NCBI GenBank assembly: GCA_043769275.1
Contig: JAYVJM010000091.1
Span: forward strand, 1-58,557
DNA: 58,557 nt
Direction of reading: 5' to 3'
Source: Cellvibrionales bacterium
Lineage (GTDB): Bacteria > Pseudomonadota > Gammaproteobacteria > Pseudomonadales > UBA7239
Shown: positions 3,210-42,224 of the stretch, one piece after another
How positions within the stretch are numbered: the stretch's first letter is position 1
Layout: each line of letters starts with the position of its first letter
Translations under genes and position numbers: made by a program
Notes under the pieces: model-generated
The model's input: the letters and a program-made list of their open reading frames with translations, nothing else
Databases searched by the model: none
What the model was told of the DNA's origin: nothing

Positions 3210-3523
3210 TGCTGCGAAATCAACCACAGGCCGTTTCGTGGCAAATTAGCGTGTTTGCGCTGCTATGTTTTTTGCTGCTGTTGTTGTCGGTAATGGGGAG
3301 CGCATTAGGTGTCATTGTCAGTACATTTGAAAACCGCCGTTATCTTGCGGAGTTAGAGGCGCTTCGTGTAGATGCGCGTGCTATGCAGGTATTGTGGGGG
3401 CAGTATTTGGTTGAAAAAAGCACGTGGGCAGCCTACGGGCGTATCCATGATATTGCTGTGCAGGGCTTGGCTATGCGTGCGCCACAAACGGATGCCATGC
3501 TGATTGTTAAGGTAAAGCAGTGA
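3209..3523 (+). CDS. ftsL: cell division protein FtsL
   Basis: 104-aa ORF between rsmH and ftsI with a single TM (VFALLCFLLLLLSVMGSALGVIV) followed by a helical segment. Its ATG overlaps the rsmH stop (TAATG). Confidence 0.75.
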   Translation: MLRNQPQAVSWQISVFALLCFLLLLLSVMGSALGVIVSTFENRRYLAELEALRVDARAMQVLWGQYLVEKSTWAAYGRIHDIAVQGLAMRAPQTDAMLIVKVKQ

Positions 3524-5412: not shown

Positions 5413-6935
5413 GCCGCCAGATGCAAGCCAAGAGTTTATACGATGTATCTGGGCAGGACTTGCACAAAAATATTCGCGTGCTTGATTTGCGTATGGATAG
5501 TCGACTTGTGCAGAAGGATGATTTGTTTTTTGCGCTGTCTTTGGATGCAAAGCAGCGTGCGCAGCATATTGATCAGGCGGTTAGTCAAGGATGTTCTGCT
5601 GTGGTAGTCGACGCGGGAGCGCCACTTTTTGAGCATGGCGTATTGCCGGTTGTCGCTATTAAAAATCTTCGTTCAGCTTTGGGGGAAATTGCAAATAATT
5701 TTTATGATCAGCCATCATCACAGGGCGTGGTCGTAGGAATTACAGGCACTAATGGCAAAACATCGTGCAGCCACTGGATGGCGCAAGCGTGGAGTGCAGT
5801 GGCAGGCTCTGCTGCTTTTATGGGTACGCTGGGTAGTTCGATAATAGAAAACGGCGTAGAAACGACAAGTCTACAATCATCCGGTTTAACGACAGCCGAT
5901 GTGCTCAGCAATCATCGCGTATTGACGCAAATATTTTCCAGTGGCGCGAAAATGGTGGCTATGGAAGTGTCATCGCACGCATTAGATCAGGGGCGAGTTG
6001 ATGGTGTTGGTTTTGACACGGCCGTTTTTAGCAATCTGACACGGGATCATCTGGATTATCACGGCGATATGGAGCGTTATGGCCAAGCAAAGCAGCAACT
6101 GTTTTTACGGCCTGATTTAAAGCATGCCATTGTCAATATTGATGATGTGTTTGGTCAGTACTTGCTAAAAATAATCGCTGAAAAAAATAGCGGCGTGCGT
6201 CGATTGAGCTATGCGGTCGCAGATAAAACAGCCGACATCTGTGTGCAATCGTATTCAGCGACGGGTCGAGGTATCCATGCGCTTGTGCGTACGCCCTGGG
6301 GCGAGGGCGAGCTTTGCAGCAATAGCCCAGGAGAATTTAATTTACTAAATTCACTAGCTGTTCTGGCTGTTTTATGTAGCCACGGCTTGGCGTTTGAGTC
6401 GGCGTTGACTGCAATAAAGCAGTTGCGGGCAGTATCAGGGCGCACGCAGATAGTAAGTGAAGTAGAAGACGATGTATTGGTTGTTGTGGATTATGCGCAT
6501 ACCCCTGACGCTTTACAGAAAATTCTGCATGCGATGCGCCCACAAACAGGCGGAAAGTTATGGTGCGTTTTTGGTTGTGGTGGTGAGCGTGACGCAGGCA
6601 AGCGCCCACAAATGGGCGCTATTGCCGAAAGTTTTTCCGATGTTGCGGTGATTACAGACGACAACCCTCGCAATGAAAATTCGCAAAATATTATTGATGG
6701 AATTATCGCGGGGTTTAAAAATAAAAACTTTCATGTGGAGCGAGATCGCTCTCGAGCCATTCAGTTTGCCATTCATGAAGCTGCTGCTGCTGATGTCGTT
6801 TTGATTGCAGGCAAAGGCCATGAAAGCTATCAGGATATCTGTGGAAAAAAACTGCCTTTTTTAGATGAAAGCTGTGCGAAGTTGGCGTTGCGGCAGCGTA
6901 AAAATAAACAGCTTAGAGGAGTTGCGCATTCATGA
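5409..6935 (+). CDS. murE: UDP-N-acetylmuramoyl-L-alanyl-D-glutamate--2,6-diaminopimelate ligase
   Basis: Mur ligase P-loop GITGTNGKTS and the DNPR motif (ITDDNPRNE) typical of meso-DAP-adding MurE. ATGA overlap with ftsI. Confidence 0.93.
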   Translation: MSRQMQAKSLYDVSGQDLHKNIRVLDLRMDSRLVQKDDLFFALSLDAKQRAQHIDQAVSQGCSAVVVDAGAPLFEHGVLPVVAIKNLRSALGEIANNFYDQPSSQGVVVGITGTNGKTSCSHWMAQAWSAVAGSAAFMGTLGSSIIENGVETTSLQSSGLTTADVLSNHRVLTQIFSSGAKMVAMEVSSHALDQGRVDGVGFDTAVFSNLTRDHLDYHGDMERYGQAKQQLFLRPDLKHAIVNIDDVFGQYLLKIIAEKNSGVRRLSYAVADKTADICVQSYSATGRGIHALVRTPWGEGELCSNSPGEFNLLNSLAVLAVLCSHGLAFESALTAIKQLRAVSGRTQIVSEVEDDVLVVVDYAHTPDALQKILHAMRPQTGGKLWCVFGCGGERDAGKRPQMGAIAESFSDVAVITDDNPRNENSQNIIDGIIAGFKNKNFHVERDRSRAIQFAIHEAAAADVVLIAGKGHESYQDICGKKLPFLDESCAKLALRQRKNKQLRGVAHS

Positions 6936-8311
6936 TGAATCCCTTGTCTTTACGCACCATAGCGCAGGTTTGTTCGGGATATTATTCTGGTGCAGATATC
7001 TTTTGTGAGCGAGTGAATATAGATAGTCGTCGAGTTGAGCACGGCGATTTATTTATCGCGTTGCGAGGCGATGTTTTTGATGCGCACGATTTTTTAGTTG
7101 ACGCTGAAAAGGCGGGCGCAACAGCCGCCTTGGTGGAAAAAAGGCAAGCTAATTGTTTGATGCCGCAGGTGTTGGTTAGTAACACGCTAATCGCTTTGGG
7201 CGAATTGGCTGCATTTAATCGAGCGGCATTTAAAAAGAAAGTTATTGCCTTAACGGGTAGCGCAGGAAAAACAACAACCAAAGAAATGATCGCTGCCATT
7301 CTTGCTCAAACAGGGAACCCGTTAGTGACGGAAGGTAACCTCAACAATCATATCGGCGTGCCATTAACTTTGCTGCGTTTGGCGCTTGAACACGAAAGCG
7401 CAGTGATAGAAATGGGCGCGAGCGGTTTGGGTGACATTTCCTATTTGAGTAAAATGGCAAAGCCGGATATAGCGTTGGTTAGTAATGTAGCTGCTGCGCA
7501 TATTGCCGGTTTTGGCAGTATTGAAAATGTGGCGTTAGGTAAAAAAGAAATTTTTGACGGCTTGGCTGCAAATGGCGTTGCCATTATCAATCTTGATAAT
7601 GCTTACACGGCAAATTGGCTGGCAGATACCGCTGCGTACTTTTCTGTATTGACGTATTCCATTGAAAAAAAAGCGGATGTGTTTGCCGCTGCTATCAAGC
7701 AAACAGCTTCTGGTATGGAGTTTACCTTGTGTTATGGCGGGGAAGTCTGTTTGGTGTCGCTGGCGTTTTTAGGTAGACACAATGTCGCGAATGCCGTTGC
7801 TGCTGCGGCCTGTTGTTTGGCGCTTGGTAAAAGCCTGCCTGAAGTTGCATCGGGATTACAGAGAGCGAAACCCTACAAAGGTCGCTTGCAGCGCAAGAAG
7901 GGACTGAACGGCTGCCTGATCGTTGATGATAGTTATAACGCGAATCCCGCTTCGTTGCAGATGGCTATTGATAGCCTAATGGCGTGCGGTGGCGAGCCGA
8001 TTTTGGTGCTGGGTGATATGGCTGAATTGGGCGCCGATGCTGCGAGTATGCATCGCGCTGCTGGAGAGTACGCGCATCTAGCCGGTGTGAAAAAATTATT
8101 AGCATATGGTGAATTGTCTAAAGCAACAGTTGCTGGCTTTGGCGAAGGGGCGCGGCATTTTGCAGATTGGCAAAGTTTGGCAGATGCGTGTCTTTTAATG
8201 GCAGATTCTGATGCCGCTTTTCTGGTGAAGGGCTCGCGCAGCGCTGGAATGGAGCGTGTGGTGAATGCGCTAGTCGTTTCCGAAAAAACTACGGAGAAGG
8301 AAAAAATATAA
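6932..8311 (+). CDS. murF: UDP-N-acetylmuramoyl-tripeptide--D-alanyl-D-alanine ligase
   Basis: P-loop [12 protein letters not shown], a Mur ligase C-terminal domain, and the conserved position after murE. ATGA overlap with murE. Confidence 0.93.
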
Positions 8312-9393
8312 TGCTGATTTGGCTGGCAAATTATTTAGCGCAGTTTCACACGGCCTTTGGCGTTGTAAATTATTTAACGTTTCGCGCCATTATGAGCGTG
8401 CTAACCGCGCTGGCTTTGTCGTTGTGGATGGGGCCTGTTGCCATTGCGTATCTGAAGCGGCTGAAGGTGGGACAGTCTGTACGTGATGATGGCCCGCAAA
8501 GCCATCTGAGTAAATCGGGCACGCCGACAATGGGCGGCATCATGATTTTGGCATCTATCTGTACTAGCACTTTGTTGTGGGCGCGTTTAGATAATCGTTT
8601 TGTATGGGCTGTACTGCTGACATCTGTGCTGTTTGCCGCGATTGGCTGGGTGGATGATTGGCGCAAAGTTGTCGAGAAAAATTCGCGAGGTTTGCCTTCG
8701 CGCTGGAAGTATTTTTGGCAGTCTCTGTTTGGTTTAGGTGTTGCTGTTTTTCTTTATAAAACAGCAGCAAGCCCAGTTGAGACACAGCTATACATACCCT
8801 TCTTTAAAAATGTGGTGATTAATCTTGGTTGGTTTTTTATTCCGCTCGCCTATTTTGTCATTGTAGGTAGCAGCAATGCGGTGAATTTAACCGATGGTCT
8901 TGATGGTTTGGCGATAATGCCATCGGTCATGATTGCTTTTGCGTTGGCTGTTTTTGCGTATGTCACGGGCAACATAAAATTTGCACAGTATTTGAATATT
9001 CCTTATGTCGCAGGCAGTGGGGAGTTGGTGATCTTTTGCGGCGCTTTAATTGGCTCTGGCTTGGGCTTTCTTTGGTTTAACACTTATCCCGCGCAAGTGT
9101 TTATGGGTGATGTTGGCGCTTTGGCCTTGGGCGCGGCATTGGGTTTGATTGCCGTTATTGTGCGTCACGAAATTGTATTTTTCATTGTGAGCGGCGTGTT
9201 TGTCATGGAGACGGTGTCGGTCATTTTACAAGTGGCATCATTCAAATTGACCGGTAAACGTATTTTCCGTATGGCTCCCATACACCACCATTTTGAATTA
9301 AAGGGTTGGCCAGAGCCGCGTGTCATTGTGCGTTTTTGGATTATTACCGTCATTCTCATGTTAATTGGTTTGGCAACGCTCAAACTCAGATAA
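8311..9393 (+). CDS. mraY: phospho-N-acetylmuramoyl-pentapeptide-transferase
   Basis: 360-aa polytopic membrane protein with [13 protein letters not shown] and [11 protein letters not shown] motifs. TAATG overlap with murF. Confidence 0.95.
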
Positions 9394-9409
9394 GTTGGCA
9401 GCTAAAACT

Positions 9410-10756
9410 ATGACGATTATTGCAACGGATAGAAAATATATAGTCATTGGCCTTGGAGAGTCAGGCTGGGCATGTGCGCGCTTTTTACGTGCGCGTGGAG
9501 ATGTGTTTGTGATGATGGATACGCGGATTTCGCCGCCTAGTCTTTCTGCATTTCAGAAAGAGTTTCCCGATGTCTCGGTGATTTGCGGCGCGCTAGATAG
9601 CGCGCTGCTTGTGCAGGCTAATGAGATTGTTGTAAGCCCAGGCATTTCTCTCGCGGAGCCTGCGTTGCAGGCGGCAAAAAGAGCAGGTGTATCGCTGGTA
9701 GGCGATATTGAATTATTTGTGCGACACACAAAAAAGCCGATTATTGCCATTACTGGTTCAAACGCTAAAAGTACCGTGACCACACTGGTAGGCGAAATGG
9801 CGGTAGCTGCTGGGCTTTCCGTCGGTGTGGGTGGCAACCTCGGCATTCCTGCATTAGACATGTTGGATGATGGGCGTATTGATTGTTATGTGTTGGAGTT
9901 GTCTAGTTTTCAGTTGGAGACGACGTTTTCTTTGTGCGCTCAAGTGGCGGTTCTTTTAAACATCAGTGCCGATCATATGGATAGATACGAGAATTTGCAG
10001 GCATATGTTTTGGCGAAGCAACGTATTTACCGCGGTGCGCAGCATGTTGTTTTTAATCGAGCTGATAAATTAACGCACCCGATGTTGGCAAACCAACAAA
10101 CAGCTTGGTCTTTTGGTTTGGATATGGGTGACCGTTTTTCCGTGGGTATAAAAAATATCTCAGGAGAAGACTGCTTGGTTCGCAATATGCGCGAGCCGCT
10201 CCTGCGTGTGGATGATGTGCCGTTGGCGGGCAGCCATAACATAGCCAATGTGGTGGCGGCTTTGGCTATTGCGAGTGCGGCTGGTTGGGATATTGCCGCT
10301 TGTGTTGCTGCTGTAAAGAAATTCAGCGGTCTTGCACATCGTTGTCAGTTTGTTGCAAAAGAAAAAGGCGTGTCGTTTTTTAATGATTCTAAGGGTACCA
10401 ATATCGGCGCGACAATTGCTGCTATTACGGGCTTGGCTGCTGCGAAAAAAAATATTGTTTTGATCGCTGGTGGAGAAGGGAAAGGTGCTGATTTTTCAGA
10501 TATGGCGGCCTGTGTACAAGCGCACGTCAAGCATATTGTGTTAATTGGTAGAGACGCGGATTTAATTGCGTCTGCTTGTACAGGTGCGGCGCACAGCAAG
10601 GCATCATCAATGGCGGCTGCCGTGCAGCAGGCGGCGCAATTGGCTACGGAAGGGGACATTGTGTTGTTGTCGCCCGCTTGTGCCAGTTTTGATATGTTCA
10701 AAAACTACGAAGATCGCGGTAGACAATTTTGTGTCGCTGTGGAGTCTTGCGTATGA
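9410..10756 (+). CDS. murD: UDP-N-acetylmuramoylalanine--D-glutamate ligase
   Basis: N-terminal Rossmann motif VIGLGESG and P-loop ITGSNAKSTV. The ATG at 9410 was chosen because the track start at 9365 overlaps the mraY end. Confidence 0.93.
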   Translation: MTIIATDRKYIVIGLGESGWACARFLRARGDVFVMMDTRISPPSLSAFQKEFPDVSVICGALDSALLVQANEIVVSPGISLAEPALQAAKRAGVSLVGDIELFVRHTKKPIIAITGSNAKSTVTTLVGEMAVAAGLSVGVGGNLGIPALDMLDDGRIDCYVLELSSFQLETTFSLCAQVAVLLNISADHMDRYENLQAYVLAKQRIYRGAQHVVFNRADKLTHPMLANQQTAWSFGLDMGDRFSVGIKNISGEDCLVRNMREPLLRVDDVPLAGSHNIANVVAALAIASAAGWDIAACVAAVKKFSGLAHRCQFVAKEKGVSFFNDSKGTNIGATIAAITGLAAAKKNIVLIAGGEGKGADFSDMAACVQAHVKHIVLIGRDADLIASACTGAAHSKASSMAAAVQQAAQLATEGDIVLLSPACASFDMFKNYEDRGRQFCVAVESCV

Positions 10757-12000
10757 AAAGCCTGCACGCATTTATTTATCCTGTGTCATCTGCTTATCCG
10801 GTGAAAAAAACAGAGGACGGCAGTGTTTTGTGGTGTATGGATATGCCAATGCTTGTTTTTGCGCTTGCATTGTTTTTTCTTGGTTGGGTTATGGTCAGTT
10901 CTGCCTCGATGGATTACGCATGGCATGGTACGGCAGACGCATTTTATTTCAGCAAACATCACGGTGTTTATGTCTTGTTGTCCATTTTATGTGGCGCTGT
11001 CGTGCTCGCCGTGCCCATCTCCGCTTGGCGGCGATTGGACGCTGCGTTTCTTGTTCTTGCTGCTTTGTTGTTGCTGATTGTGCTGGTGCCTGGGATAGGG
11101 CGGCGTGTTAATGGCGCTCAACGCTGGCTAAATTTCGGCTTTATGACTTTGCAGGTTTCAGAAATTGCGAAATGGGCAGCTATGGTTTTTTTCGCCGGTT
11201 ATCTTGTGCGTCGCCGTGCAGATATGCAAAACAGCATGTGGGGTTTTTGTAAGCCGTTTATTGTGCTGGGTGTTTTGGCCGCATTGTTGTTGGCTGAACC
11301 GGATTTCGGCGCAACGGTTGTAATTGGTTTATCTACTCTGGCGTTGTTGTTTCTAGCAGGCGCGCCGCTTGTGCGTTTTGTTTTGTTGCTGTTGACGTGT
11401 TTGGGTGCTGCCGTATTTTTGGCGGTTTCTGAGAGTTATCGTTTTGCACGTTTGATGGCATTTGTTAATCCTTGGGATGAGAGCGTGGTGTACGGAAGCG
11501 GTTATCAGTTGACGCAGTCTTTAATTGCTATTGGCCGAGGCGAGTGGTTTGGTGTTGGCTTGGGGAATAGCGTGCAAAAATTATTTTATCTTCCAGAGGC
11601 ACACACCGATTTTGTATTCAGTATTTGGGCTGAAGAAACGGGTCTTGCGGGTGCTGCTTTGGTGGTTTTCTTGTTTTCTGCATTGATCTGGCGTTTGTTT
11701 GTCGTTGTAAATATCGCTGCACGGCGAGGCGAGAATTTTGGTGCGCTGGTTGTTAGCGGCATTGCGCTCGTGCTCGGGTTCCAAGTCTTTATCAATATCG
11801 GCGTGGCCTCTGGATTGCTACCAACCAAGGGCTTGACCTTGCCGTTTATAAGCTACGGCGGCAGTAGTTTAATGATCAGTGCAGCGATGATTGCTATGGC
11901 CTTGCGTTTGAGTTTTGAGAATCGCATTTACGGTTCAGATGAGCGTGCTGTTTCTGTAGAAAAAACCGTAGTAGCGACCGAGCGATATCGCGATGACTAA
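10753..12000 (+). CDS. ftsW: SEDS-family peptidoglycan glycosyltransferase FtsW
   Basis: Polytopic protein with PEAHTDFVFS and LPTKGLTLPFISYGGSS motifs. The ATG at 10753 overlaps the murD stop (ATGA) and is preceded by GGAG (10741-10744). Confidence 0.92.
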   Translation: MKSLHAFIYPVSSAYPVKKTEDGSVLWCMDMPMLVFALALFFLGWVMVSSASMDYAWHGTADAFYFSKHHGVYVLLSILCGAVVLAVPISAWRRLDAAFLVLAALLLLIVLVPGIGRRVNGAQRWLNFGFMTLQVSEIAKWAAMVFFAGYLVRRRADMQNSMWGFCKPFIVLGVLAALLLAEPDFGATVVIGLSTLALLFLAGAPLVRFVLLLLTCLGAAVFLAVSESYRFARLMAFVNPWDESVVYGSGYQLTQSLIAIGRGEWFGVGLGNSVQKLFYLPEAHTDFVFSIWAEETGLAGAALVVFLFSALIWRLFVVVNIAARRGENFGALVVSGIALVLGFQVFINIGVASGLLPTKGLTLPFISYGGSSLMISAAMIAMALRLSFENRIYGSDERAVSVEKTVVATERYRDD

Positions 12001-13084
12001 GCCGACGGTTAGTGCAAAAACAGTATTGATTATGGCGGCTGGTACGGGTGGGCACATATTCCCCGCTTTGGCGGTGGCGCAGCTATTGCGCACGCGCGGA
12101 TGGCGGGTGGAGTGGTTGGGCACGGCAGTCGGCATTGAGGCAACAGTTGTCCCTGCCAATGATTTTTCGCTGCATCGCATTAGCGCGGTTGGGTTACGGG
12201 GCAAGGATTTTAAAAAGTTGCTGCTGGCTCCGTGGTTTTTGGCCTGTTCTTTTTGGCAGACAGTAAAAATATTCCGGCAGATTAGGCCTCGTGTTGTGCT
12301 GGGCATGGGTGGGTTTGTCACGGGTTCTGGCGGTATGTGCGCACGAATTTTTGGCGCGCCTTTGGTTATTCATGAGCAAAACGCTATTGCAGGAACCGCC
12401 AATCGTGTATTGGCTTGTTTTGCGCAACGCGTACTTTCTGCCTTTCCTAATGTATTTGCACATGGTGAGGTCGTTGGTAACCCAGTGCGTGCTGATATTG
12501 CGCGGTTGGCGAAAGAACCCAAAAAAATTAGCGATCAAAACACAGCAATTAAGTTACTGGTATTGGGTGGCAGCCAAGGCGCACAGATATTGAATGATGT
12601 ATTGCCCCATGCCATCGGGCTGTTGCCAGATACGATACGGCCAGAAGTATTCCATCAGTCAGGAAAAGGCAAAAAAGAAGGGACGCGTGAGCGTTATGGT
12701 CAGCTCGGTGTGGATGCTCGAGTTGACGATTTCGTAGACGATATGGCAGCCATGTATCAGTGGGCTGATATCGTTGTGTGTCGTGCAGGTGCAATGACCG
12801 TGTCTGAGCTGGCCTGTGCGCAACTCCCAGCGGTGCTAATTCCATTGCCCTCTGCTATTGATGATCACCAAAATTTCAATGCGCGATACTTGGTCGATGC
12901 GGGCGCGTCATATTTATTGCCACAGTCTCAGCTCAATGCGGAAACATTGGCGGACATGTTAAAAAAAATCATGGCGAATAGAGCGGCATTACAGGCTATG
13001 GCAGATACATTGCGTTCGTTGGCCAGCATTACTGCGGCAGAGCGAGTGGCGGATATTTGCGAGGAGTTGGCTGATGTTCAGTAG
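11993..13084 (+). CDS. murG: undecaprenyldiphospho-muramoylpentapeptide beta-N-acetylglucosaminyltransferase
   Basis: N-terminal AAGTGGHIFPALAVA motif and a GT28 C-terminal domain. 8-nt overlap with ftsW. Confidence 0.93.
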   Translation: MTKPTVSAKTVLIMAAGTGGHIFPALAVAQLLRTRGWRVEWLGTAVGIEATVVPANDFSLHRISAVGLRGKDFKKLLLAPWFLACSFWQTVKIFRQIRPRVVLGMGGFVTGSGGMCARIFGAPLVIHEQNAIAGTANRVLACFAQRVLSAFPNVFAHGEVVGNPVRADIARLAKEPKKISDQNTAIKLLVLGGSQGAQILNDVLPHAIGLLPDTIRPEVFHQSGKGKKEGTRERYGQLGVDARVDDFVDDMAAMYQWADIVVCRAGAMTVSELACAQLPAVLIPLPSAIDDHQNFNARYLVDAGASYLLPQSQLNAETLADMLKKIMANRAALQAMADTLRSLASITAAERVADICEELADVQ

Positions 13085-13108
13085 GCAAATTTTTTTAAGG
13101 TTATACCT

Positions 13109-14527
13109 ATGTTGATTCCAGAAATGCGTCGGATACGTCGCATACATTTTATTGGTATTGGCGGTGCTGGTATGTGCGGTATTGCCGAGGTTTTGTTGAA
13201 CCAAGGCTATGTTATTTCTGGCTCGGACGTGCGTGATTCTGCTGTTGTTAAGCGGCTGCATACACTGGGTATTCCGGTTGCGATTGGGCATTGTCCAGAC
13301 AATGTCGTCAATGCAGATGTTGTTGTGGTATCCAGCGCAATTGATATGCAAAACTCGGAATTGGTTGCTGCACGCGCAGCGCGTATTCCTGTAGTGCGTC
13401 GTGCAGAAATGTTGGCGGAGTTGATGCGTTATCGGCACGGAATTGCTGTGGCCGGTGCGCACGGAAAAACTACCACGACAAGCCTAATTGCTTCGATTTT
13501 GGCTGAGGGCGGGCTGGATCCTACCTATGTTATCGGCGGTTTGCTCAATAGCACGGGCAGAAATGCCGGCCTTGGGGCGAGTCGTTATTTAGTGGCAGAA
13601 GCCGATGAAAGCGATGCGTCTTTTTTACATTTGCAGCCTATGGTTGCCGTTGTGACCAATATTGATGCAGATCACATGGAAACCTACGCGGGCGATTTTA
13701 AGCGCCTGCAAAAAACGTATGTTGAGTTTCTGCATAATTTGCCATTTTACGGCGTGGCGGTGATTTGCATTGATGACGCTGCGGTGTTCGAAATCATGCA
13801 AGACATTGGTCGACCAATAATTACCTACGGGTTTGACGTAGATGCTGATTTCCGTATTGTCGATGCTGTACAAGACAAAATGCAAAGTACTTTTACAATT
13901 TTAAGGCCAGAGCAATTACCAATAACCGCAACAATTAACTTGCCAGGCTTACACAACGTACAAAACGCGGCGGCGGCTGTTGCTGTGGCTACGGATGAAG
14001 GAATAGCGGACGATGCTATTGTGCGCGCACTCGCAAAATTTCAAGGCGTAGGTCGTCGTTTTCAAGTGTACGGTGAATATGATGTCGAGCATGGAAAAGT
14101 CATGCTTGTGGATGATTATGGCCATCATCCGCGTGAAGTGGATGCTGTCATTTGCGCCGTACGCGCCGGCTGGCCAGAGCGTAGATTGGTGATGGTTTAT
14201 CAGCCGCATCGTTACACGCGCACGCGCGATTTGTACGAAGACTTTGTTGGCGTTTTATCCCAGGTTGATGTCCTTGTTTTGCTTGATGTATACAGCGCAG
14301 GCGAGGCGTTTATTGCGGGTGCCGATAGCCGTACTTTGGCGCGCAGTATTCGTCAGCGCGGTATGGTCGATCCTATGTTTGTTGAAAATATAGAGGCGGT
14401 TCCTGCGCTGCTGTCTCGGGTGTTGCAAGCGGGCGATTTTGTCGTGACGCAAGGAGCAGGAAATGTGGGTGTTTTGGCGGCAGATTTAGCGCGCTGCAAG
14501 TTATTGGATGAGTCCGTGTCATGTTGA
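13109..14527 (+). CDS. murC: UDP-N-acetylmuramate--L-alanine ligase
   Basis: [15 protein letters not shown] and [10 protein letters not shown] motifs, with the Mur ligase middle and C-terminal domains. Confidence 0.93.
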
Positions 14528-15501
14528 CGTTTGATAAAGAAAAAGCAGGCATTTTTGATGCACAGAAAATGGGTCGTGTGGCGGTTTTATATGGCGGCCT
14601 TTCTTCTGAGCGTGAAGTCTCGCTTAAGAGTGGGCGCGCCATTTTTGATGCGTTATTGCGCTTGGGTTGTGATGCTGAATTGGTTGATGTGAAGGAGGAT
14701 TTTTTGCTGGTACTTGCGCAAGCGCAAGCGTCAGAAAAGCCTTGGCAGCGTGCATTTATTGCGTTGCACGGTGTAGGAGGCGAAGACGGAGTTATTCAGG
14801 CTGTGCTGCAAATGGCGAGTATTCCTTATACCGGCAGCGGTGTTCTGGCGTCTGCTCTGACGATGAATAAATGGCGGACAAAACAGTTATGGATGGAACA
14901 GGCTTTGGCCACGCCGGCGCATGAGCTTCTGCATGAGAATAGTGATTGGCATGCCTGTATAAGAAAATTGGGCGGAGTGGCTATTGTTAAACCTGCCTGT
15001 GAAGGCTCCAGTATGGGCATGCGTAAAGCTACGAGCGCAGAAAGTTTACGGAATGCTTATTTTTTTGCGCGTCAATTTGCCGGCGTTGTGTTGGCGGAGG
15101 CGTGGATAAATGGGCCGGAATTTACGGTTGGTATTTTGAATGACGAAGCATTGCCGGTTATCCGATTGGAAACAGATAGCGAGTTTTACGACTTCGACGC
15201 GAAATATGTATCAAATAACACGCGCTATTTATGTCCTTGTGGTTTGTCGCCGGACAAGCATCTGGAATTACAGCAATTGGCATTGTCAGCCTTTAATGCT
15301 GTTGGCTGTCGTGGCTGGGGGCGCGTAGATGTTATGAGTGATGATACGGGTAAATTTTACTTGCTTGAGGTTAATACTGTGCCTGGTATGACGGATCACA
15401 GCTTGGTGCCAAAGGCCGCTGCAGCGAAAGGCGTAGATTTTGACGGGTTGGTTATGCAGATTTTGTTGAGTAGTTTTCATTTCATTGGGGAGGTTGTTTA
15501 G
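14521..15501 (+). CDS. ddl: D-alanine--D-alanine ligase
   Basis: ATP-grasp protein with [21 protein letters not shown] and [11 protein letters not shown] motifs. 7-nt overlap with murC. Confidence 0.92.
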
Positions 15502-15504
15502 CCC

Positions 15505-16290
15505 ATGCATGCAGATAATGCAATGCGACTATCGGCAACACGTAAGCCTACTGCTTCTGGCTCGATTGTGGAGGCCAAAGGCGGTGCGTTTTTTTATCGT
15601 TTTTTGTTGGTCTTCATGCAGACTGTTCTGGTTTTTTTATTGCTGTGTGGCATTTATTTTGCTTTGCCTTGGTTGCATGCGGCCTTTAATAAGCCAATTG
15701 CGCGTATCTTGGTGCGTGGTGATTTGCAGGCATTGAATCAGAAGGCAGTCATGGATGTTGTTGCAATTTATGAAGAAGACAGCTTTTTCGACGTTGATTT
15801 AGCCGCTTTAGTTCATCGCCTAGAATCGCAGCCGTGGATTGCGCACGCACGCGCACGCAGGCGTTGGCCCGATGCGGTTGAAATTGATTTGGTCGAGCAA
15901 AAGCCGATCGCTTATTGGGGGAATAACGCAATAGTTAACGCAAAAGGACGTATTTTTGAGCATCAGGGTCTGTATCAGAATCACGCCTTGCCTCGCCTTT
16001 GGAGTGAGCTAGGTACGCCGGCGGAGGCGATGAGCCACTACGAAATTTTTACGCAGCAATTGCAGCCTCTTGCTTTGGGTTTGCGCTCGATAAGTCAGAA
16101 TGTGCAGGGTGATTGGCAGTTGCAATTAAGCAATGGAATAACGGTAATGCTGGATCGTGCAGATCCAGTCGGCAATGTACGCAACTTTATCAGCGTATAT
16201 CGGCAACTATTGTTGCACAGTGCGCGGCGTGCATTAGTGGTAGATATGCGCTATCGCCATGGCGCGGCGATACGTTGGCAGCCCGTGTGA
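15505..16290 (+). CDS. ftsQ: cell division protein FtsQ
   Basis: Single TM followed by a POTRA-like segment (ARILVRGDLQALN...), positioned between ddl and ftsA. Confidence 0.8.
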   Translation: MHADNAMRLSATRKPTASGSIVEAKGGAFFYRFLLVFMQTVLVFLLLCGIYFALPWLHAAFNKPIARILVRGDLQALNQKAVMDVVAIYEEDSFFDVDLAALVHRLESQPWIAHARARRRWPDAVEIDLVEQKPIAYWGNNAIVNAKGRIFEHQGLYQNHALPRLWSELGTPAEAMSHYEIFTQQLQPLALGLRSISQNVQGDWQLQLSNGITVMLDRADPVGNVRNFISVYRQLLLHSARRALVVDMRYRHGAAIRWQPV

Positions 16291-16314
16291 TAGCCGGTTA
16301 AATGGGAGAGCGAT

Positions 16315-17559
16315 ATGAGTTTGGATAAGAGCCATTTAAAAAATAATTTAATCGTGGGCTTGGATATAGGCACATCTAAAGTTGTGGCTTTGGTGGGAGA
16401 GATTGGCACAGACGGCAGCTTAGAGGTTATTGGCATTGGGTCGCATAAGTCAATTGGTTTGAAGAAAGGTGTGGTGGTCAATATTGAATCCACAGTGCAG
16501 TCTATTCAGCGCGCCATAGAGGAAGCTGAACTGATGGCGGGGTGCCAAATTCACTCTGTTTATGCAGGTATAGCGGGCAGTCATATTCGCAGCTTGAATT
16601 CACACGGTATCGTGGCTATCCGTGATCGTGAAGTGCAAGTTGCGGATGTAGAGCGTGTAATTGATGCGGCGCAGGCGGTAGCGATTCCTGCCGATCAAAA
16701 AGTGCTGCATATTCTTCCTCAGGATTACATAATTGATAGCCAGGAAGGGGTGCGCGAGCCGTTAGGGATGTCAGGTGTTCGCCTAGAGGCCAAAGTACAT
16801 CTGGTCACTTGCGCTGTGAATGCTGCACAAAACATTGAAAAATGTATACGTCGATGCGGGCTGGAAGTAGATGATATTATCTTGGAGCAGTTGGCATCTA
16901 GTTATGCTGTGCTTACAGAAGACGAGAAAGAGTTGGGCGTGTGTTTGGTGGATATCGGCGGAGGCACAACGGATATTGCTGTATTTACCGAGGGGGCAAT
17001 AAAGCACACGGCAGTGATTCCCATTGCGGGAGATCAAGTCACGAATGATATTGCTATGGCGCTGCGTACGCCGACACCGTTTGCGGAAGAGATTAAAATC
17101 AAATATGCCTGCGCGCTTACGCAGCTTGCGCGGGCAGACGAAATTATTAAAGTGCCCGGTGTGGGCGAGCGTGTAGCGCGTGATTTATCGCGCCAAGCAC
17201 TCGCTGAAGTGGTTGAGCCACGGTACGATGAATTATTTACTTTGATACAAGCGGAGCTGCGTCGCAGCGGTTATGAAGATTTGATTGCCGCGGGTGTCGT
17301 GTTAACGGGTGGAACTGCTAAAATCGAGGGAGCGGTGGAGTTGGCTGAAGAAATATTTCATATGCCCGTACGTGTAGGTGCGCCAGTGGATGTGAAAGGT
17401 TTGAGCGATATTGTTAGAAATCCCATTTACTCGACTGGAGTCGGATTGCTTTTGTATGGTCTCAAGCAGCAGAAGGAAGGTAGGTTGGGTATAGAAACTG
17501 CAAGCAATCGTGCCAGCATCATCGATAAGGTGAAGCGTTGGCTTAAGAATAATTTTTAA
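16315..17559 (+). CDS. ftsA: cell division protein FtsA
   Basis: Actin-fold motifs VGLDIGTSKVVALVGE and VDIGGGTTDIAVF, with a C-terminal amphipathic helix (VKRWLKNNF). Confidence 0.95.
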   Translation: MSLDKSHLKNNLIVGLDIGTSKVVALVGEIGTDGSLEVIGIGSHKSIGLKKGVVVNIESTVQSIQRAIEEAELMAGCQIHSVYAGIAGSHIRSLNSHGIVAIRDREVQVADVERVIDAAQAVAIPADQKVLHILPQDYIIDSQEGVREPLGMSGVRLEAKVHLVTCAVNAAQNIEKCIRRCGLEVDDIILEQLASSYAVLTEDEKELGVCLVDIGGGTTDIAVFTEGAIKHTAVIPIAGDQVTNDIAMALRTPTPFAEEIKIKYACALTQLARADEIIKVPGVGERVARDLSRQALAEVVEPRYDELFTLIQAELRRSGYEDLIAAGVVLTGGTAKIEGAVELAEEIFHMPVRVGAPVDVKGLSDIVRNPIYSTGVGLLLYGLKQQKEGRLGIETASNRASIIDKVKRWLKNNF

Positions 17560-17592
17560 ATCGCTTTTTAGCCGAGATAAGTGAGGCAGGCC

Positions 17593-18795
17593 ATGTTTGA
17601 ACTAATTGAAAATGTACCACAAACAGCAGTAATTAAAGTTATCGGTGTTGGGGGCGGTGGCGGCAATGCTGTGCGTCATATGATCGCTAACGATGTTGAG
17701 GGTGTTGAGTTTATTTGTGCCAACACCGACGCACAGGCATTGCGTGATTTAGCGCAGGGCAGTGTCCTCAAGATCGGTAGTGGTGTGACGAAGGGTTTGG
17801 GTGCCGGTGCGAATCCAGACATGGGGCGTCAAGCCGCGCTTGAAGACCGAGAGCGTATTGCTGAGGTATTAAAAGGAGCCGACATGGTCTTTATTACTGC
17901 AGGCATGGGCGGCGGAACGGGTACAGGTGCTGCACCTGTTGTGGCGCAAATTGCACGAGATTTAGGTATTTTGACTGTGGCCGTTGTGACGAAGCCTTTC
18001 CCCTTTGAGGGCAAAAAGCGCATGGCGATTGCGCAGGAAGGCTTGCGTGCGCTTGCGGAAAATGTCGATTCATTGATTACGATTCCCAATGAAAAATTGC
18101 TCACAGCAATGGATAAAAACACGTCCTTGCTGGATGCATTTAAAGCGGCCAATGATGTGTTGCTGGGTGCAGTGCAGGGCATTGCACATCTGATTATTCG
18201 TGAAGGTCTGATTAACGTGGATTTCGCGGATGTGCGCACAGTGATGTCTGAGATGGGCGTTGCGATGATGGGAACCGGCAAAGCCTCAGGTGAAAACCGT
18301 GCGCGCTTGGCAGCAGAGGCCGCTATTCGTTGTCCATTACTGGATAATGTTGATCTTCAAGGAGCGCGTGGCATTTTGGTTAACATCACGGCTGGCTTTG
18401 ACTTAACGATGGGAGAGTTTGAAGAGGTGGGTAATGCGATACATGAGTTTGCCTCCGATAGTGCAACAGTCGTGGTGGGTACGGTTTTGGATCCAGATAT
18501 GAGCGGCGAATTGCGTGTCACGGTTGTAGCAACAGGTCTTGGCAGTCACGCAATCGCGCCGGAGCAGAAGCCAGCGAAGCTTGCGGATAATGGGGCAAGC
18601 TTGCGTGCATCAGCTTCTGGTGTGACGGACTATTCGCAATTGGATCGTCCAGCCGTGATGCGCCAACAGCAGTCTGCTCAAGTGGCAGCGGAGCGTGTGG
18701 CTGTCGCTGTGCCGGCTGTTATGCCGAGACAAAGCACGGATGCCGATCTTGATTATCTTGATATCCCTGCCTTTCTGCGTCGCCAAGCGGATTAA
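17593..18795 (+). CDS. ftsZ: cell division GTPase FtsZ
   Basis: IGVGGGGGNAV, the tubulin signature GGGTGTGAAPV, and the C-terminal peptide DYLDIPAFLRRQAD. ATG at 17593 (MFELIEN); the track lists an upstream GTG. Confidence 0.96.
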   Translation: MFELIENVPQTAVIKVIGVGGGGGNAVRHMIANDVEGVEFICANTDAQALRDLAQGSVLKIGSGVTKGLGAGANPDMGRQAALEDRERIAEVLKGADMVFITAGMGGGTGTGAAPVVAQIARDLGILTVAVVTKPFPFEGKKRMAIAQEGLRALAENVDSLITIPNEKLLTAMDKNTSLLDAFKAANDVLLGAVQGIAHLIIREGLINVDFADVRTVMSEMGVAMMGTGKASGENRARLAAEAAIRCPLLDNVDLQGARGILVNITAGFDLTMGEFEEVGNAIHEFASDSATVVVGTVLDPDMSGELRVTVVATGLGSHAIAPEQKPAKLADNGASLRASASGVTDYSQLDRPAVMRQQQSAQVAAERVAVAVPAVMPRQSTDADLDYLDIPAFLRRQAD

Positions 18796-38085: not shown

Positions 38086-38907
38086 ATGCTCATTTACCCT
38101 GTTATTGATCCCATCATTGTGAGTTTCACCTTGCCTGTGATGGGGCTGGTCGCTATACGTTGGTACGGCGTGATGTACCTTCTGGGTTTGGCGTGCGCAT
38201 GGTGGCTGGCGCTGCGCCTTACGCGTGCGGGGCGCGCACCCACCCGCACCCGCGAGGAAGTGGATGATCTAATTTTCTATGCGGCGATGGGTGTGATTGT
38301 GGGCGGGCGTATCGGTTACGCGCTGTTCTATCAGTTTAATGAACTTTTGCACGACCCGCTGTTCCTATTCAAGATAACGCAGGGCGGCATGTCGTTTCAC
38401 GGCGGCCTGTTGGGCGTACTGCTGGCTATGTGGTTGTATGGCCGCAAAATCCACCAGCCTTTTTTTGCGATCACTGATTTTATCGCGCCGATGGTGCCAA
38501 TTGGCTTAGGTTTGGGGCGGCTGGGCAATTTTATCAATCAGGAGCTTTGGGGGCGAGCCACCGATGCGCAATGGGCAATGGTTTTTCCGTCAGACCCGCT
38601 ACATTTGGTGCGTCACCCGTCGCAGTTATACCAGTTTGCCTTGGAAGGCGTGTTGCTGTTTATTGTTCTGCACATTTACGCGTCGAAGCCGCGTGCGCTG
38701 GGCATGGTGTCGGGCTGGTTTTTGATTTTGTATGCATTGTTCCGTTTTGCGGTAGAGTTTTTTCGTGAGCCGGATGCGCAAATTGGTTTTGATTGGCTAG
38801 GCTGGATGACACGTGGGCAAGAGCTGTGCGTTCCCATGCTTATCGCCGGCATCGCCATTTGTATTTGGGCGTGCCATCGGAGTAAAAAACCGCACAGCAG
38901 AGGATAA
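38086..38907 (+). CDS. lgt: prolipoprotein diacylglyceryl transferase
   Basis: Polytopic protein with [13 protein letters not shown] and [13 protein letters not shown] motifs. The lgt-thyA pairing is conserved. Confidence 0.93.
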
Positions 38908-39706: not shown

Positions 39707-39707
39707 A

Positions 39708-40052
39708 TCAACGGCTTTTTTGCTGCCCGTGCTCACCTTGAGCTCGTCGACTGTGAGTGGTCAGTGCGTCGAACTGCATCTCGTGTGTGCAATGCCTCTC
39801 GGCCTCCTTGAAATCCTCGCCACTTTCTCCGGCAGCATCGTGTAGCTGGTCTTGCTGGGTATGGAACTTTTTTAAGAATCTCCTTTCAAAGGCTTGAGGT
39901 TTCGTTCTTAGCGCAAAGTTTGCTAGCACGTAACGGTATTGGATAAAGACTGTTTTTATTTGTTTAATCATCGCCGCAATTTTTTGTTCAGATTGTACAC
40001 ATGTTGTTGTTTTTTTGGCGTGTTTTTTTGTTTGTGTGGATAAATTAAGCAT
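39708..40052 (-). CDS. hypothetical small protein (orphan ORF, weak support)
   Basis: This is the only sizeable ORF in the 450-bp gap. I recognise no motif and its composition is low-complexity and basic. The listed 180-aa version would overlap the neighbouring gene start, so the ATG at 40052 (or 39971) is a guess. Confidence 0.25.
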   Translation of the reverse strand: MLNLSTQTKKHAKKTTTCVQSEQKIAAMIKQIKTVFIQYRYVLANFALRTKPQAFERRFLKKFHTQQDQLHDAAGESGEDFKEAERHCTHEMQFDALTTHSRRAQGEHGQQKSR

Positions 40053-40159
40053 CCCTTGGTTTTGATGCGAGATGGGTAACGCAAAAAACTGTTTTTCAGC
40101 GCGGCTTATCCAGGTTCGATAAAAAGCGAGCCACTTTAAATAATTGAGAGGAATTTGAA

Positions 40160-42178
40160 ATGAAGAAAGTTCGAAAAGTACATGCGGCAACCTTCGTCGG
40201 CATCCTGCTGGCGGGTGTTTTGCCTGGCTATGCAGCGGCTGCAGCCGCACAAGTTTGTGTTGTTAAAAGCGGGGAAAGGGCGGGTGCAATCCGTGCCATG
40301 CCGCGCAGCGGCAACTGTGCAAAACATGAGCGTATTGGCAGTTTGAGCGGGGCGGAACCGGTTAACGTGTGCGTTAATCAGGGCTCCGGCGCCATGCGCT
40401 TGCAATTAAGAAAAGATCGTTTAGGTGATGTGAGTGCGTGTAAAGCAGGCGAACTGGCGCAGGTGCTACAAGACTCAGGAAGCAAGGATATCACTGCCTG
40501 CGTGAGCAAAAAAGGCGGCGCGATAAAAGTTTCTAACGGGAATGCTGCGTGTAAGGCAAAAACGGAAGACACCATTCAATTACATGGCGCTGGTTCTTTT
40601 GCTGAGCAAAACAAAGGTGCAAGTTTTGACCCTGCTAGATTGTCGCCACTTATCGACGCGTCTCTAACGGCTCAGTTGCCTGCCGCGTTACCCGCCGCCA
40701 TTGCTGCTGCCGGCATTACTGAGGCATCTGTTGCTGCTGCGGGTCTCCCCGCTAGCATTGCTGCTGCTGCTGGTTCAGCCACTGCTGCTCATACTGAAGC
40801 TGGTAATGCCGCTACTTCAGCCGCTAATGCTGCTGGTTCGGCCACTGCTGCTCATACTGAAGCTGATAATGCCGCTACTTCAGCCGCTAATGCTGCTGGT
40901 TCAGCCACTGCTGCTGCTGGTTCAGCCACTGCTGCTCATACTGAAGCTGGTAATGCCGCTACTTCAGCCACTGCTGCTCATGCAGATGTTGTGACTACTA
41001 ATGCAGATGTTGGTTTAACTCATGCAGATGTTGTGGCTACTCATGCAGATGTTGGTTTAACTAATGCAGATGTTGTGGCTACTCATACAGATGTTGGTTT
41101 AACTAATGCAGATGTTGCGGCTACTAATGCTGCTGCCGCTACTGTTGCCGCTACTGTTGCCCCTGCTGCCGTCACTGCTGCTATCGTGGCTAATGCTGCT
41201 TCTGTTCAGGCTCTCGGCGCCGCCATCGGTGCTGACGTTACCGCTTTGCCTGCTTTGGGTAATGATCTTGCTGGTAATCCTGGTACCGTCACGGCCTTTG
41301 GTAATGCGATAGCGAATGATGCTGCTGAGGTTCAACGTCTCGGCGCCGCCATCGGTGCTGACGCTACCGCTTTGCCTGCTTTGGGTAATCATCTTGCCGC
41401 CAATGCTGCCACCGTCACTGCTTTTGGTACTGCGATAGCGGGTGATGCTGCTGAGGTTCAACGTCTCGGCACCGCCATCGGTGCTGACGCTACTGCTTTG
41501 CCTGCTTTGGGTACTGCTCTTGCTGGTAATGCTGGTGCCGTCACTAACTTTGGTACTGCTCTTGCTGGTAATGCTGGTGCCGTCACTAACTTAGGTAATG
41601 CTCTTGCTGGTAATGCTGGTGCCGTCACTGCTTTTGGTACTGCGATAGCGGGTGATGCTGCTGAGGTTCAACGGCTCGGCACTGCTCTTGCTGGTGACCC
41701 TGCCATTACCGCAGCTATCGCTCCCCAGTTGCATGTGTACGACAACGCCAATAATGATCTGGGTGTCTACCTTCCCGGCTTGGGCTTGTATGATCCTGCC
41801 AATGGCACGGTTCTTGTGATTAGTGACTTGGCCCGAGGGCGTCTCAAAAGCATTAACGTTAACGCCCCCGTTGGTTACTTCAGTGATAATGCTTGCAACA
41901 CAGATGCGTTCCCCCTGGATGCAACGGATGGCTTTGTTCAGAAAATTATGTGGGACACCACTGCACGTGCTCCTATGCTAATTACCCCAAACAACATTGT
42001 AGAAGGTCAGTTGTATGTTGTTGACGGCGCTAACACCTGTTATGAATACCCGGGTCTTGGTGTTTTAACTCGGTATACCCGAGTATTTGTCTCAGCAGCC
42101 GTGCCAGCGGCAAGAGCAGGCCTCACTGTGGTTAATCTGGCTGCTTTAAGAGTTAACCTTCCTCTCGTAATCCGTTAA
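40160..42178 (+). CDS. secreted Ala/Thr/Gly-rich tandem-repeat protein of unknown family
   Basis: 672-aa ORF with a signal peptide (MKKVRKVHAATFVGILLAGVLPGYAAAAAA). The N-terminal module holds three Cys-hairpin repeats. About 310 aa of nested repeats follow, then a unique ~160-aa C-terminal domain with two Cys. A strong terminator lies downstream. Confidence 0.8.
   Translation: MKKVRKVHAATFVGILLAGVLPGYAAAAAAQVCVVKSGERAGAIRAMPRSGNCAKHERIGSLSGAEPVNVCVNQGSGAMRLQLRKDRLGDVSACKAGELAQVLQDSGSKDITACVSKKGGAIKVSNGNAACKAKTEDTIQLHGAGSFAEQNKGASFDPARLSPLIDASLTAQLPAALPAAIAAAGITEASVAAAGLPASIAAAAGSATAAHTEAGNAATSAANAAGSATAAHTEADNAATSAANAAGSATAAAGSATAAHTEAGNAATSATAAHADVVTTNADVGLTHADVVATHADVGLTNADVVATHTDVGLTNADVAATNAAAATVAATVAPAAVTAAIVANAASVQALGAAIGADVTALPALGNDLAGNPGTVTAFGNAIANDAAEVQRLGAAIGADATALPALGNHLAANAATVTAFGTAIAGDAAEVQRLGTAIGADATALPALGTALAGNAGAVTNFGTALAGNAGAVTNLGNALAGNAGAVTAFGTAIAGDAAEVQRLGTALAGDPAITAAIAPQLHVYDNANNDLGVYLPGLGLYDPANGTVLVISDLARGRLKSINVNAPVGYFSDNACNTDAFPLDATDGFVQKIMWDTTARAPMLITPNNIVEGQLYVVDGANTCYEYPGLGVLTRYTRVFVSAAVPAARAGLTVVNLAALRVNLPLVIR
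40769..41700 (+). repeat. nested in-frame tandem repeats (63-bp, 21/42-bp and 126-bp families)
   Basis: 63-bp units at 40769-40831 and 40832-40894 differ at 2 nt, with partial copies running to about 40978. Seven 21-bp units span 40979-41125. 126-bp units lie at 41195-41320, 41321-41446 and 41447-41656. The third contains three 42-bp subunits (41516-41641). A partial fourth unit starts at 41657. Confidence 0.85.
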
Positions 42179-42191
42179 TTGCTATTTGTGT

Positions 42192-42224
42192 AAAACAATG
42201 GGGCGCAATGCCCCATTGTTTTTT
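42192..42224. terminator. bidirectional rho-independent terminator between the repeat-protein gene and mutS
   Basis: Perfect 13-bp stem AAAACAATGGGGC/GCCCCATTGTTTT with a 5-nt loop (GCAAT). An A-tract is built into the left arm and a T-run follows on the right. Confidence 0.8.

Follow-up and report, generated by a model that had tools for sequence, protein, structure and literature searches.

A putative exported stalk-and-head fiber with a heptad-phased, length-variable stalk and a fast-changing head, encoded between thyA and mutS in a Cellvibrionales bacterium

The stretch of DNA analyzed here, 58,557 nucleotides of a contig (JAYVJM010000091.1) from an uncultured Cellvibrionales bacterium (hereafter, the window), contains between thyA and mutS an open reading frame (ORF) for a protein of 672 amino acids (aa), at 40160-42178 on the + strand. 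The protein consists of a signal peptide, three Cys-bracketed repeats, a stalk of heptads in one phase, and a C-terminal domain, which we call the head. We observed that a near-identical contig encodes a form that is shorter by whole heptads, that the head has accumulated an excess of amino-acid replacements, and that one repeat family of the stalk resembles the shafts of phage tail fibers. With moderate confidence, we read the gene as encoding an exported, probably trimeric stalk-and-head fiber, in which the stalk changes length by repeat slippage and the head is diversifying.

In the mechanism that we propose, the N-terminal module of three Cys hairpins would probably form the base or attachment end, the stalk of 46 heptads would resemble the proximal shaft of T7-type tail fibers, and the beta-rich C-terminal globular domain would serve as the head. 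Stalk length would change in whole-heptad steps, via slippage or unequal recombination between exact direct repeats of 50-60 nucleotides (nt), and because the steps are whole heptads, both the reading frame and the coiled-coil register would survive each change. The head would keep its scaffold while its patches change under diversifying selection, and such fast-changing patches would be expected of a head that is exposed, be it as a ligand-binding domain or as a target of phages, grazers, or competitors. The parts of the protein, all on the + strand, are as follows.

40160-40246, +, Sec-type signal peptide, read from the translation, with a cleavage site placed from the sequence
40253-40567, +, N-terminal module of three Cys-bracketed repeats (aa 32-57, 70-98, and 113-136)
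40568-40768, +, linker rich in Ala, Pro, and Leu (aa 137-203), within which the heptad register starts at ~aa 198
40769-40978, +, 63-bp family, three copies of the three-heptad unit GSATAAH-TEAGNAA-TSAANAA and one further heptad
40979-41125, +, seven 21-bp heptads, xADVVAT alternating with xADVGLT
41126-41194, +, connector rich in Ala, Val, and Thr (aa 323-345), in the same heptad phase
41195-41719, +, 126-bp family, six-heptad units LGAAIGA-DATALPA-LGNHLAA-NAATVTA-FGTAIAG-DAAEVQR
41720-42175, +, C-terminal head domain (aa 521-672, ~150 aa), predicted to be beta-rich, with conserved Cys 579 and 627

The stalk runs in a single register: residues 198-519 form 46 heptads, with zero phase breaks across the three repeat families and the connector. 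Tandem Repeats Finder returned periods of 63 (40765-40915, 96% match), 21/42 (40980-41130, 93% at period 42), 126 (41212-41559, 87%), and 42/84 (41402-41695), and a second repeat search recovered the same families. A first-pass annotation, made by a model from the letters alone, had remarked that every unit length is a multiple of 3; this holds and can be tightened, as the units of 21, 42, 63, 84, and 126 nt are all multiples of 21 nt, i.e., of one heptad. The positions it gave for the 63-bp copies (40769 and 40832), the heptads (40979-41125), and the 126-bp copies (41195, 41321, and 41447, the third with two extra 42-bp subunits inside it) match the translation exactly, and a partial fourth copy of the 126-bp unit follows. 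Its description of the three families as nested applies only to the 42-bp units, which are contained in the 126-bp unit; for the most part, the families follow one another. Heptad position 5 is I, L, or V without exception, and in the 126-bp family L/F alternates with D/N at position 1, an arrangement that we read as the a/d positions of a coiled coil whose core contains polar layers. The stalk is most likely a parallel alpha-helical coiled coil, and by analogy with its phage-shaft relatives and with the collagen triplets that a homolog carries at the stalk position (both described below), this coiled coil is suggested to be trimeric. The AlphaFold2 monomer model (full length, three-sequence alignment) lends weak support in that it draws the stalk as helix, continuous over residues 198-283 and then as ~12-residue helices. 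The predicted local distance difference test (pLDDT) score of this model (37.3) and of that of the C-terminal domain (two-sequence alignment; 36.5) is so low that structural matches to either would be meaningless.

The codon usage of the repeats sets them apart from their surroundings. The first-pass annotation had alanine encoded almost exclusively by GCT, unlike in the flanking genes; the count is lower than that, 70 of 109 (64%) in the repeats, and the contrast with the six flanking genes (13%) is real. The underlying signal is a preference for T-ending codons, with a GC content at third codon positions (GC3) of 0.25 in the repeats, 0.50-0.62 in the neighboring genes, and 0.46-0.48 in the protein's own N- and C-terminal domains. 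This usage suggests that the stalk grew by amplification of a GCT-rich seed and was not shaped by host codon preference. Over 40761-41181, GCT, ACT, GGT, GTT, and AAT codons dominate, and the 21-nt consensus reported by Tandem Repeats Finder is rich in CTGCTG.

The variability in size that the first-pass annotation had surmised is directly seen. Contig k141_3729638, from an ENA metagenome assembly, matches the window at 100% identity along 8.7 kb on one flank of the gene and at 99.9% along 8.6 kb on the other, and it encodes a 553-aa protein (P0001) that lacks two segments of the window protein, one of 49 aa (7 heptads) and one of 70 aa (10 heptads), and is otherwise 100% identical to it. The first deletion, of 147 bp, lies in the 63-bp family and is bounded by exact direct repeats of 62 nt, the longest exact repeat anywhere in the array; the second, of 210 bp, lies in the 126-bp family and is bounded by repeats of 52 nt. 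Since these bounding repeats are shorter than typical reads and than the assembler k of 141, the two lengths are in principle resolvable by short reads. Judging by the repeats at their borders, the two lengths look like what slippage or unequal recombination would produce.

The head, in turn, is built of conserved blocks that alternate with hypervariable patches. A word-based search found one ortholog, a 219-aa fragment (P0026); its 1.8-kb JGI contig (L082) breaks off within the repeats and also covers part of mutS. L082 and the window are closely related, and the 342-codon mutS fragment of this contig is 99% identical in protein to that of the window; the heads, however, are only 78% identical. 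We estimated synonymous (dS) and nonsynonymous (dN) divergence by the Nei-Gojobori method in this one pairwise comparison of the window with L082. Over the 151 codons of the head, dS was 0.061 and dN 0.129, a ratio (omega) of 2.1, and over the adjacent mutS fragment dS was 0.068 and dN 0.004, an omega of 0.06. Amino-acid replacement in the head was thus ~30 times faster than in the neighboring mutS. Among the 50 nucleotide differences in the head, 39 fall at codon positions 1 and 2, the sole indel relative to the ortholog is one whole codon, and the differences cluster between invariant blocks such as LGVYLPGLGLYDPANGTVLVI, PVGYFSDN, ANTCYEYPG, and NLPLVIR. With moderate confidence, we take the head to be under diversifying selection, with a conserved scaffold and fast patches.

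Two other sources of the variation were considered. Import of a foreign allele by recombination is disfavored because the dS of the head equals that of mutS. A diversity-generating retroelement was rejected: the 58-kb window holds no second DNA copy of the C-terminal domain or template repeat, and the spectrum of changes shows no adenine bias (G>A 9, A>G 8, C>T 6, among others). As to the stalk of the same ortholog, positions 1-204 of L082 (P0026 residues 1-68) align with window positions 41450-41719 at 61-69% nucleotide identity and are far more diverged than the head. They include a 4-residue insertion (AIAAEIANTPAEVQR versus AIAGDAAEVQR), which has the size of a coiled-coil "stutter". The end of L082 inside the repeats is a typical short-read assembly break.

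An exhaustive HMMER scan of 1.84 billion representatives yielded one true distant homolog of the head (P0030; 310 aa; E = 2e-8; 38% identity over 114 aa), in which both Cys are conserved. This protein carries a signal peptide, followed by the same Cys module, also in three copies, then GPKGPKGEAGPD, four collagen-type GXY triplets that replace the stalk, and finally the head. The remaining hits of the scan were multi-repeat SpaA, DUF11, and DUF7601 proteins that match only ~35 head residues, and pattern scans for the C-terminal domain in GTDB genomes, JGI metagenome contigs, and IMG/VR returned zero relatives. The first-pass annotation had recognized no match to this domain: this stands for the curated libraries and PDB sequences, and it no longer stands in general, given one ortholog and one distant homolog. 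The P0030 gene, at 6986-7918 of L083 (and also on L084-L087), has a gene for a DUF1302 outer-membrane-type protein on one side and a run of amidohydrolase, methyltransferase, HAD, and SDR genes on the other. It is identical in five samples, one of which is the JGI sample that holds P0026, and its host is also a Cellvibrionales-like gammaproteobacterium. P0030 could be a paralog in the same or a related genome.

At the N-terminus, the signal peptide has an n-region (MKKVRKVH), an h-region (AATFVGILLAGVL), and a c-region (PGYAAAAAA) with AXA sites, at which we infer cleavage from the sequence; it contains neither a lipobox nor a prepilin motif. The repeats that follow share the pattern C-[VL]-x3-6-G-x-[IML]-[RK]...C-x3-E. 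The protein has an even count of eight Cys, which make up three candidate local pairs in this module (33/53, 71/94, and 114/131) and one in the head (579/627), and the bracketed repeats are probably disulfide-closed hairpins. The module had no match in profile libraries or the PDB, and a word-based homolog search with it returned nothing. The ORF, the signal peptide, the three Cys-bracketed repeats, the in-frame arrays, and the C-terminal domain had all been described in the first-pass annotation and are borne out nearly to the base.

Scans of Pfam, NCBIfam, PHROGs, and PADLOC with the whole protein and with each domain gave nothing significant, nor did PDB sequence and profile searches with the N-terminal module, the repeats, and the C-terminal domain. 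Hence, no confident full-length profile match to a characterized family emerged from Pfam, NCBIfam, PHROG, PADLOC, or the PDB, and no known anti-phage defense protein in PADLOC-DB matched at E <= 1. The protein belongs to a new, very small family without curated or structural relatives, and yet its kind is well known, that of the repeat-length-variable exported fibrous proteins. In design, with a signal sequence, a polymorphic repeat rod (672- and 553-aa alleles), and a C-terminal globular domain, it resembles Lcl of Legionella pneumophila and, more loosely, BclA of Bacillus and Clostridioides spores and the streptococcal Scl proteins, a likeness of analogy and not of homology. We regard Lcl, by this analogy of design, as the strongest functional analog. 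Lcl likewise has a signal sequence, a central tandem-repeat rod, and a C-terminal domain without known homologs, and P0030 carries its four GXY triplets at the stalk position. The repeat number of Lcl is polymorphic between strains and scales with adhesion and biofilm formation (PMC6460258). Unlike in Lcl, the stalk of the window protein consists of heptads and not of GXY triplets, with no match to the collagen family PF01391 and no GXY run; its C-terminal domain has no sequence similarity to any PDB chain, and its N-terminal Cys-repeat module has no counterpart described for Lcl.

A stretch of ~35 residues in the head (TVLVISDLARGRLKSINVNAPVGYFSDN) resembles the strand pair "G-x-V-x-V-x-DL-x-x-G-x-Y...AP-x-GY" of the SpaA-type domains (PF17802, DUF11, and DUF7601; prealbumin-like/Cna-B). 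However, only residues ~31-66 of the domain match, and the significance is a sum over many target repeats, so that we discarded these hits of the exhaustive search as a motif-level resemblance inflated by repeats. The C-terminal domain found no Pfam match at E <= 10 and did not reach the gathering score of PF17802. The resemblance gives at best a hint of a beta-sandwich fold in the head, and not of membership in the SpaA/Cna-B group.

Several observations weigh against the fiber reading. The omega above 1 comes from one pair of 151 codons, for which a bootstrap gave P (dN <= dS) = 0.018 and a one-sided Fisher test 0.057. The shorter allele stems from a short-read metagenome assembly, in which repeat collapse is possible. 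Within the 126-bp family, Gly is frequent and Pro occurs once per 42 aa, an unusual composition for canonical coiled coils; the AlphaFold2 model splits this family into ~12-residue helices, and every model has a pLDDT below 50. Finally, Pfam and NCBIfam scans for an outer-membrane secretion route found no autotransporter barrel, T1SS or T9SS signal, or sorting tag, and because no outer-membrane export signal is identifiable, the default location after Sec export is the periplasm.

The last of these points bears on the main rival, which we consider unlikely though worth weighing: that the protein spans the periplasm in the manner of TolA, TonB, or Lpp, with the N-terminal hydrophobic segment serving as signal peptide or uncleaved anchor, the Ala-rich rod crossing the periplasm, and the C-terminal domain touching the cell wall or outer membrane. 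The Sec-type signal is the only targeting signal present, with no recognizable signal for outer-membrane export or anchoring, and by itself it would place the protein only in the Gram-negative periplasm; an extracellular or surface location, an adhesin role, and any binding function go beyond it and are put forward here as conjectures from sequence. The rod is rich in Ala, apparently helical, and variable in length, as this rival would have it, and phages and colicins make use of the TolA and TonB C-terminal domains, a pressure that could also drive fast evolution of the head. However, the signal peptide looks cleavable, given its n-h-c layout, poly-Ala c-region, and Pro-Gly break. In P0030, the N- and C-terminal modules recur with essentially no stalk, so that a fixed span is not a property of the family. 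With a helix rise of ~0.15 nm per residue, the 322 helical residues would measure ~48 nm, and those of the short allele ~30 nm, of which the former is longer than the periplasm is usually wide. Profiles of TolA, TonB, and Lpp gave no match, and the lipobox [LVI][ASTVI][GAS]C expected of an Lpp-like lipoprotein is absent, the first Cys being residue 33 in the context A-Q-V-C. Overall, a periplasm-spanning protein fits poorly with a stalk-less homolog and a rod of ~48 nm.

A second line of evidence concerns the likeness of the heptads to phage tail fibers. In a full-length search, 24 proteins matched the xADVVxT block only; 7 of the 10 best are PHROG tail-fiber proteins, and some of the matches carry a T7-type N-terminal domain (PF03906) or an S74 chaperone domain (PF13884). 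The block is 59-78% identical over 50-60 residues to tail-fiber arrays, and it is the sole part of the protein with database relatives outside its own family. Eleven IMG/VR viral contigs carry xADVVxT heptads, at up to 78% identity over 51 residues, within open frames of 550-1040 aa; the shafts in these frames keep the heptad phase throughout, and Ser/Thr/Ala heptads similar to those of the 63-bp family occur among them. A tblastn search of the repeat region against 50,697 phage genomes returned nothing, probably from low-complexity masking. The viral heptad blocks are also low in GC3 (0.13-0.43). The first-pass annotation had called the protein an orphan, which is right for the curated libraries and PDB sequences and wrong for the heptad block, given its matches to tail-fiber shafts.

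The T7-type tail fibers share with the window protein a heptad-phased shaft that follows Ser/Thr/Ala-rich heptads and an order of attachment end, rod, and distal binding head. The proximal region of T7 gp17 is a triple-helical coiled coil (bioRxiv 10.1101/2025.10.22.683886). The window protein differs in that it has a Sec signal and a Cys-hairpin N-terminal module and no tail-attachment domain (PF03906 was absent in Pfam, and the only PHROG match was phrog_1419 at E = 0.11), in that its head is unrelated, and in that it is encoded by a single chromosomal gene among housekeeping genes with no phage neighbors.

One far-reaching interpretation, which we judge quite unlikely, is that the protein is the founding member of an undescribed family of exported bacterial proteins that combine a base of Cys hairpins with a hypervariable head and, between the two, a trimer-forming stalk of exchangeable type, made of heptads in the window protein and of collagen triplets in P0030. 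The stalk would have been swapped with phage fibers, and the head would be engaged in an arms race. If true, the protein might act as a cell-borne receptor-binding fiber for recognition of kin or prey, or else as a decoy or shield that guards the cell from phages with this shaft module.

A further alternative, improbable in our estimate, is that the gene is not a native envelope protein gene at all, but a captured or domesticated phage tail-fiber (receptor-binding) gene or prophage remnant. All database relatives of the heptad block are indeed tail-fiber-type proteins or lie on viral contigs, the Ser/Thr/Ala heptads of the 63-bp family also resemble those fiber shafts, and the codon usage of the repeat block (GC3 0.25) looks foreign. 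Against this, there are zero phage genes nearby, the neighbors being purA, lgt, thyA, mutS, and speDE; the N- and C-terminal domains are without relatives in PHROGs, the 50,697 phage genomes, and IMG/VR; and their GC3 (0.46-0.48) is close to that of neighbors such as speD (0.50). Tail fibers are not known to carry Sec signal peptides. Moreover, the dS of the head equals that of mutS, so that the gene was already in place when the two strains diverged. Any exchange with phages would be confined to the shaft module, which may instead have converged on the same heptad. A domesticated phage fiber is thus unlikely as an explanation of the whole gene, while an exchange of the shaft module with phages is plausible.

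Another possibility concerns the fold of the stalk: the 14-residue periodicity of the 126/42-bp family (e.g., ALAGNAGAVTNFGT) might denote a beta-roll or solenoid like the YadA head instead of a coiled coil, which we find very doubtful. Ala, Gly, and Asn abound in these 14-residue repeats, in which small and hydrophobic positions alternate; the YadA head is itself built of 14-residue repeats, and the Gly and Pro content speaks against a continuous helix. The YadA family also offers a fibrous head-and-stalk architecture, and the window heptads have polar Asn/Asp at alternate core positions; polar core layers occur in adhesin stalks. Yet the barrel anchor PF03895, the head PF05658, and the stalk PF05662 of trimeric autotransporters are all absent even at E <= 10, so that the protein lacks both a C-terminal beta-barrel anchor and any YadA head or stalk profile match, and its globular domain is C-terminal, the opposite orientation. 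AlphaFold2 gives helices and not strands, at low confidence, and the register is continuous with the heptads that are clearly phage-shaft-like. We find it scarcely credible that misassembly created the repeat block or the difference in length and that the ORF is not a functional gene, for although short-read assemblers mishandle tandem repeats, L082 breaks inside them, and the shorter allele comes from a k141 metagenome assembly, the frame is open in three independent assemblies with all indels in frame, the longest exact repeat is only 62 nt, both deletions are whole heptads, and the Shine-Dalgarno sequence, terminator, conserved Cys, and conserved sequence blocks point to a real gene.

If the reading as a length-variable, diversifying fiber is right, the gene would be a case of contingency-type variation at two levels in a free-living, uncultured marine-type gammaproteobacterium. 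It would add two unclassified domains, the Cys-hairpin repeat module and the ~150-aa head, to the catalog of envelope proteins, and its heptad shaft motif, common to a cellular exported protein and phage tail fibers, bears on the trade of fiber modules between hosts and phages. The most interesting features are the heptad-exact length polymorphism and the head with omega > 1 beside a near-identical mutS, both drawn from few sequences and the former from metagenome assemblies. The practical value is modest, the family amounting to three or four sequences among ~15 billion.

The gene lies in a setting that resembles core chromosome. Its neighbors are purA, lgt, and thyA upstream and the convergent mutS, speD, and speE downstream, all of which are also found in the twin contig (L001). 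The first-pass annotation had placed it between thyA and mutS, with an AT-rich upstream region and its own terminator, and we could verify each of these. The two flanking features are the following.

39707-40159, +, upstream intergenic region, of which the proximal ~250 bp are AT-rich (GC 0.38-0.42)
42192-42222, strand not assigned (bidirectional), intrinsic terminator common to the ORF and the convergent mutS, with an A-run, a GC-rich stem, and a T-run

The GC content of 0.38-0.42 upstream of the ORF compares with 0.505 for the whole window. There is a weak sigma-70-like match at 40116-40144, of a kind no more frequent here than in shuffled sequence, and a Shine-Dalgarno sequence, GAGAGGA, can be read at 40146-40152, 7 nt before the ATG. 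The terminator has a 13-bp stem (-22 kcal/mol, z = -4.0) and is identical in sequence in the orthologous contig L082; an exact-DNA scan of metagenome contigs for it gave no match. By its sequence, the frame is certainly coding, since it is the sole long ORF in its region and the only indel in the head is a whole codon.

MutS of the window is <=65% identical to that of any GTDB species representative, its best matches being in Pseudomonadales, Cellvibrionales, and Porticoccaceae-type metagenome-assembled genomes, which marks the host as a poorly sampled gammaproteobacterium. Among the 80 nearest mutS loci, none had thyA, lgt, purA, or speD adjacent to mutS; at this MutS identity, all of the 80 fetched genomes are too distant to tell whether the gene is an insertion. 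Rfam elements in the window comprised one tRNA and nothing else. At 3520-18795, many ORFs that point in the same direction form a long series resembling a dcw-type cell-division and cell-wall cluster, which supports the core chromosomal setting. The longest frame of thyA has a GTG start at 38813 that overlaps the end of lgt, and the ATG equivalent to 38912, from which the gene is called in the twin contig (264 aa), looks like the real start. Within the upstream region, a minus-strand open frame of 87 codons at 39708-39971 (MIKQIKTVFIQYRYVLANF...GQQKSR) ends 2 nt past the thyA stop; it has no Pfam match and is not called in the twin contig, and a small divergent gene may occupy part of the 453-bp gap.

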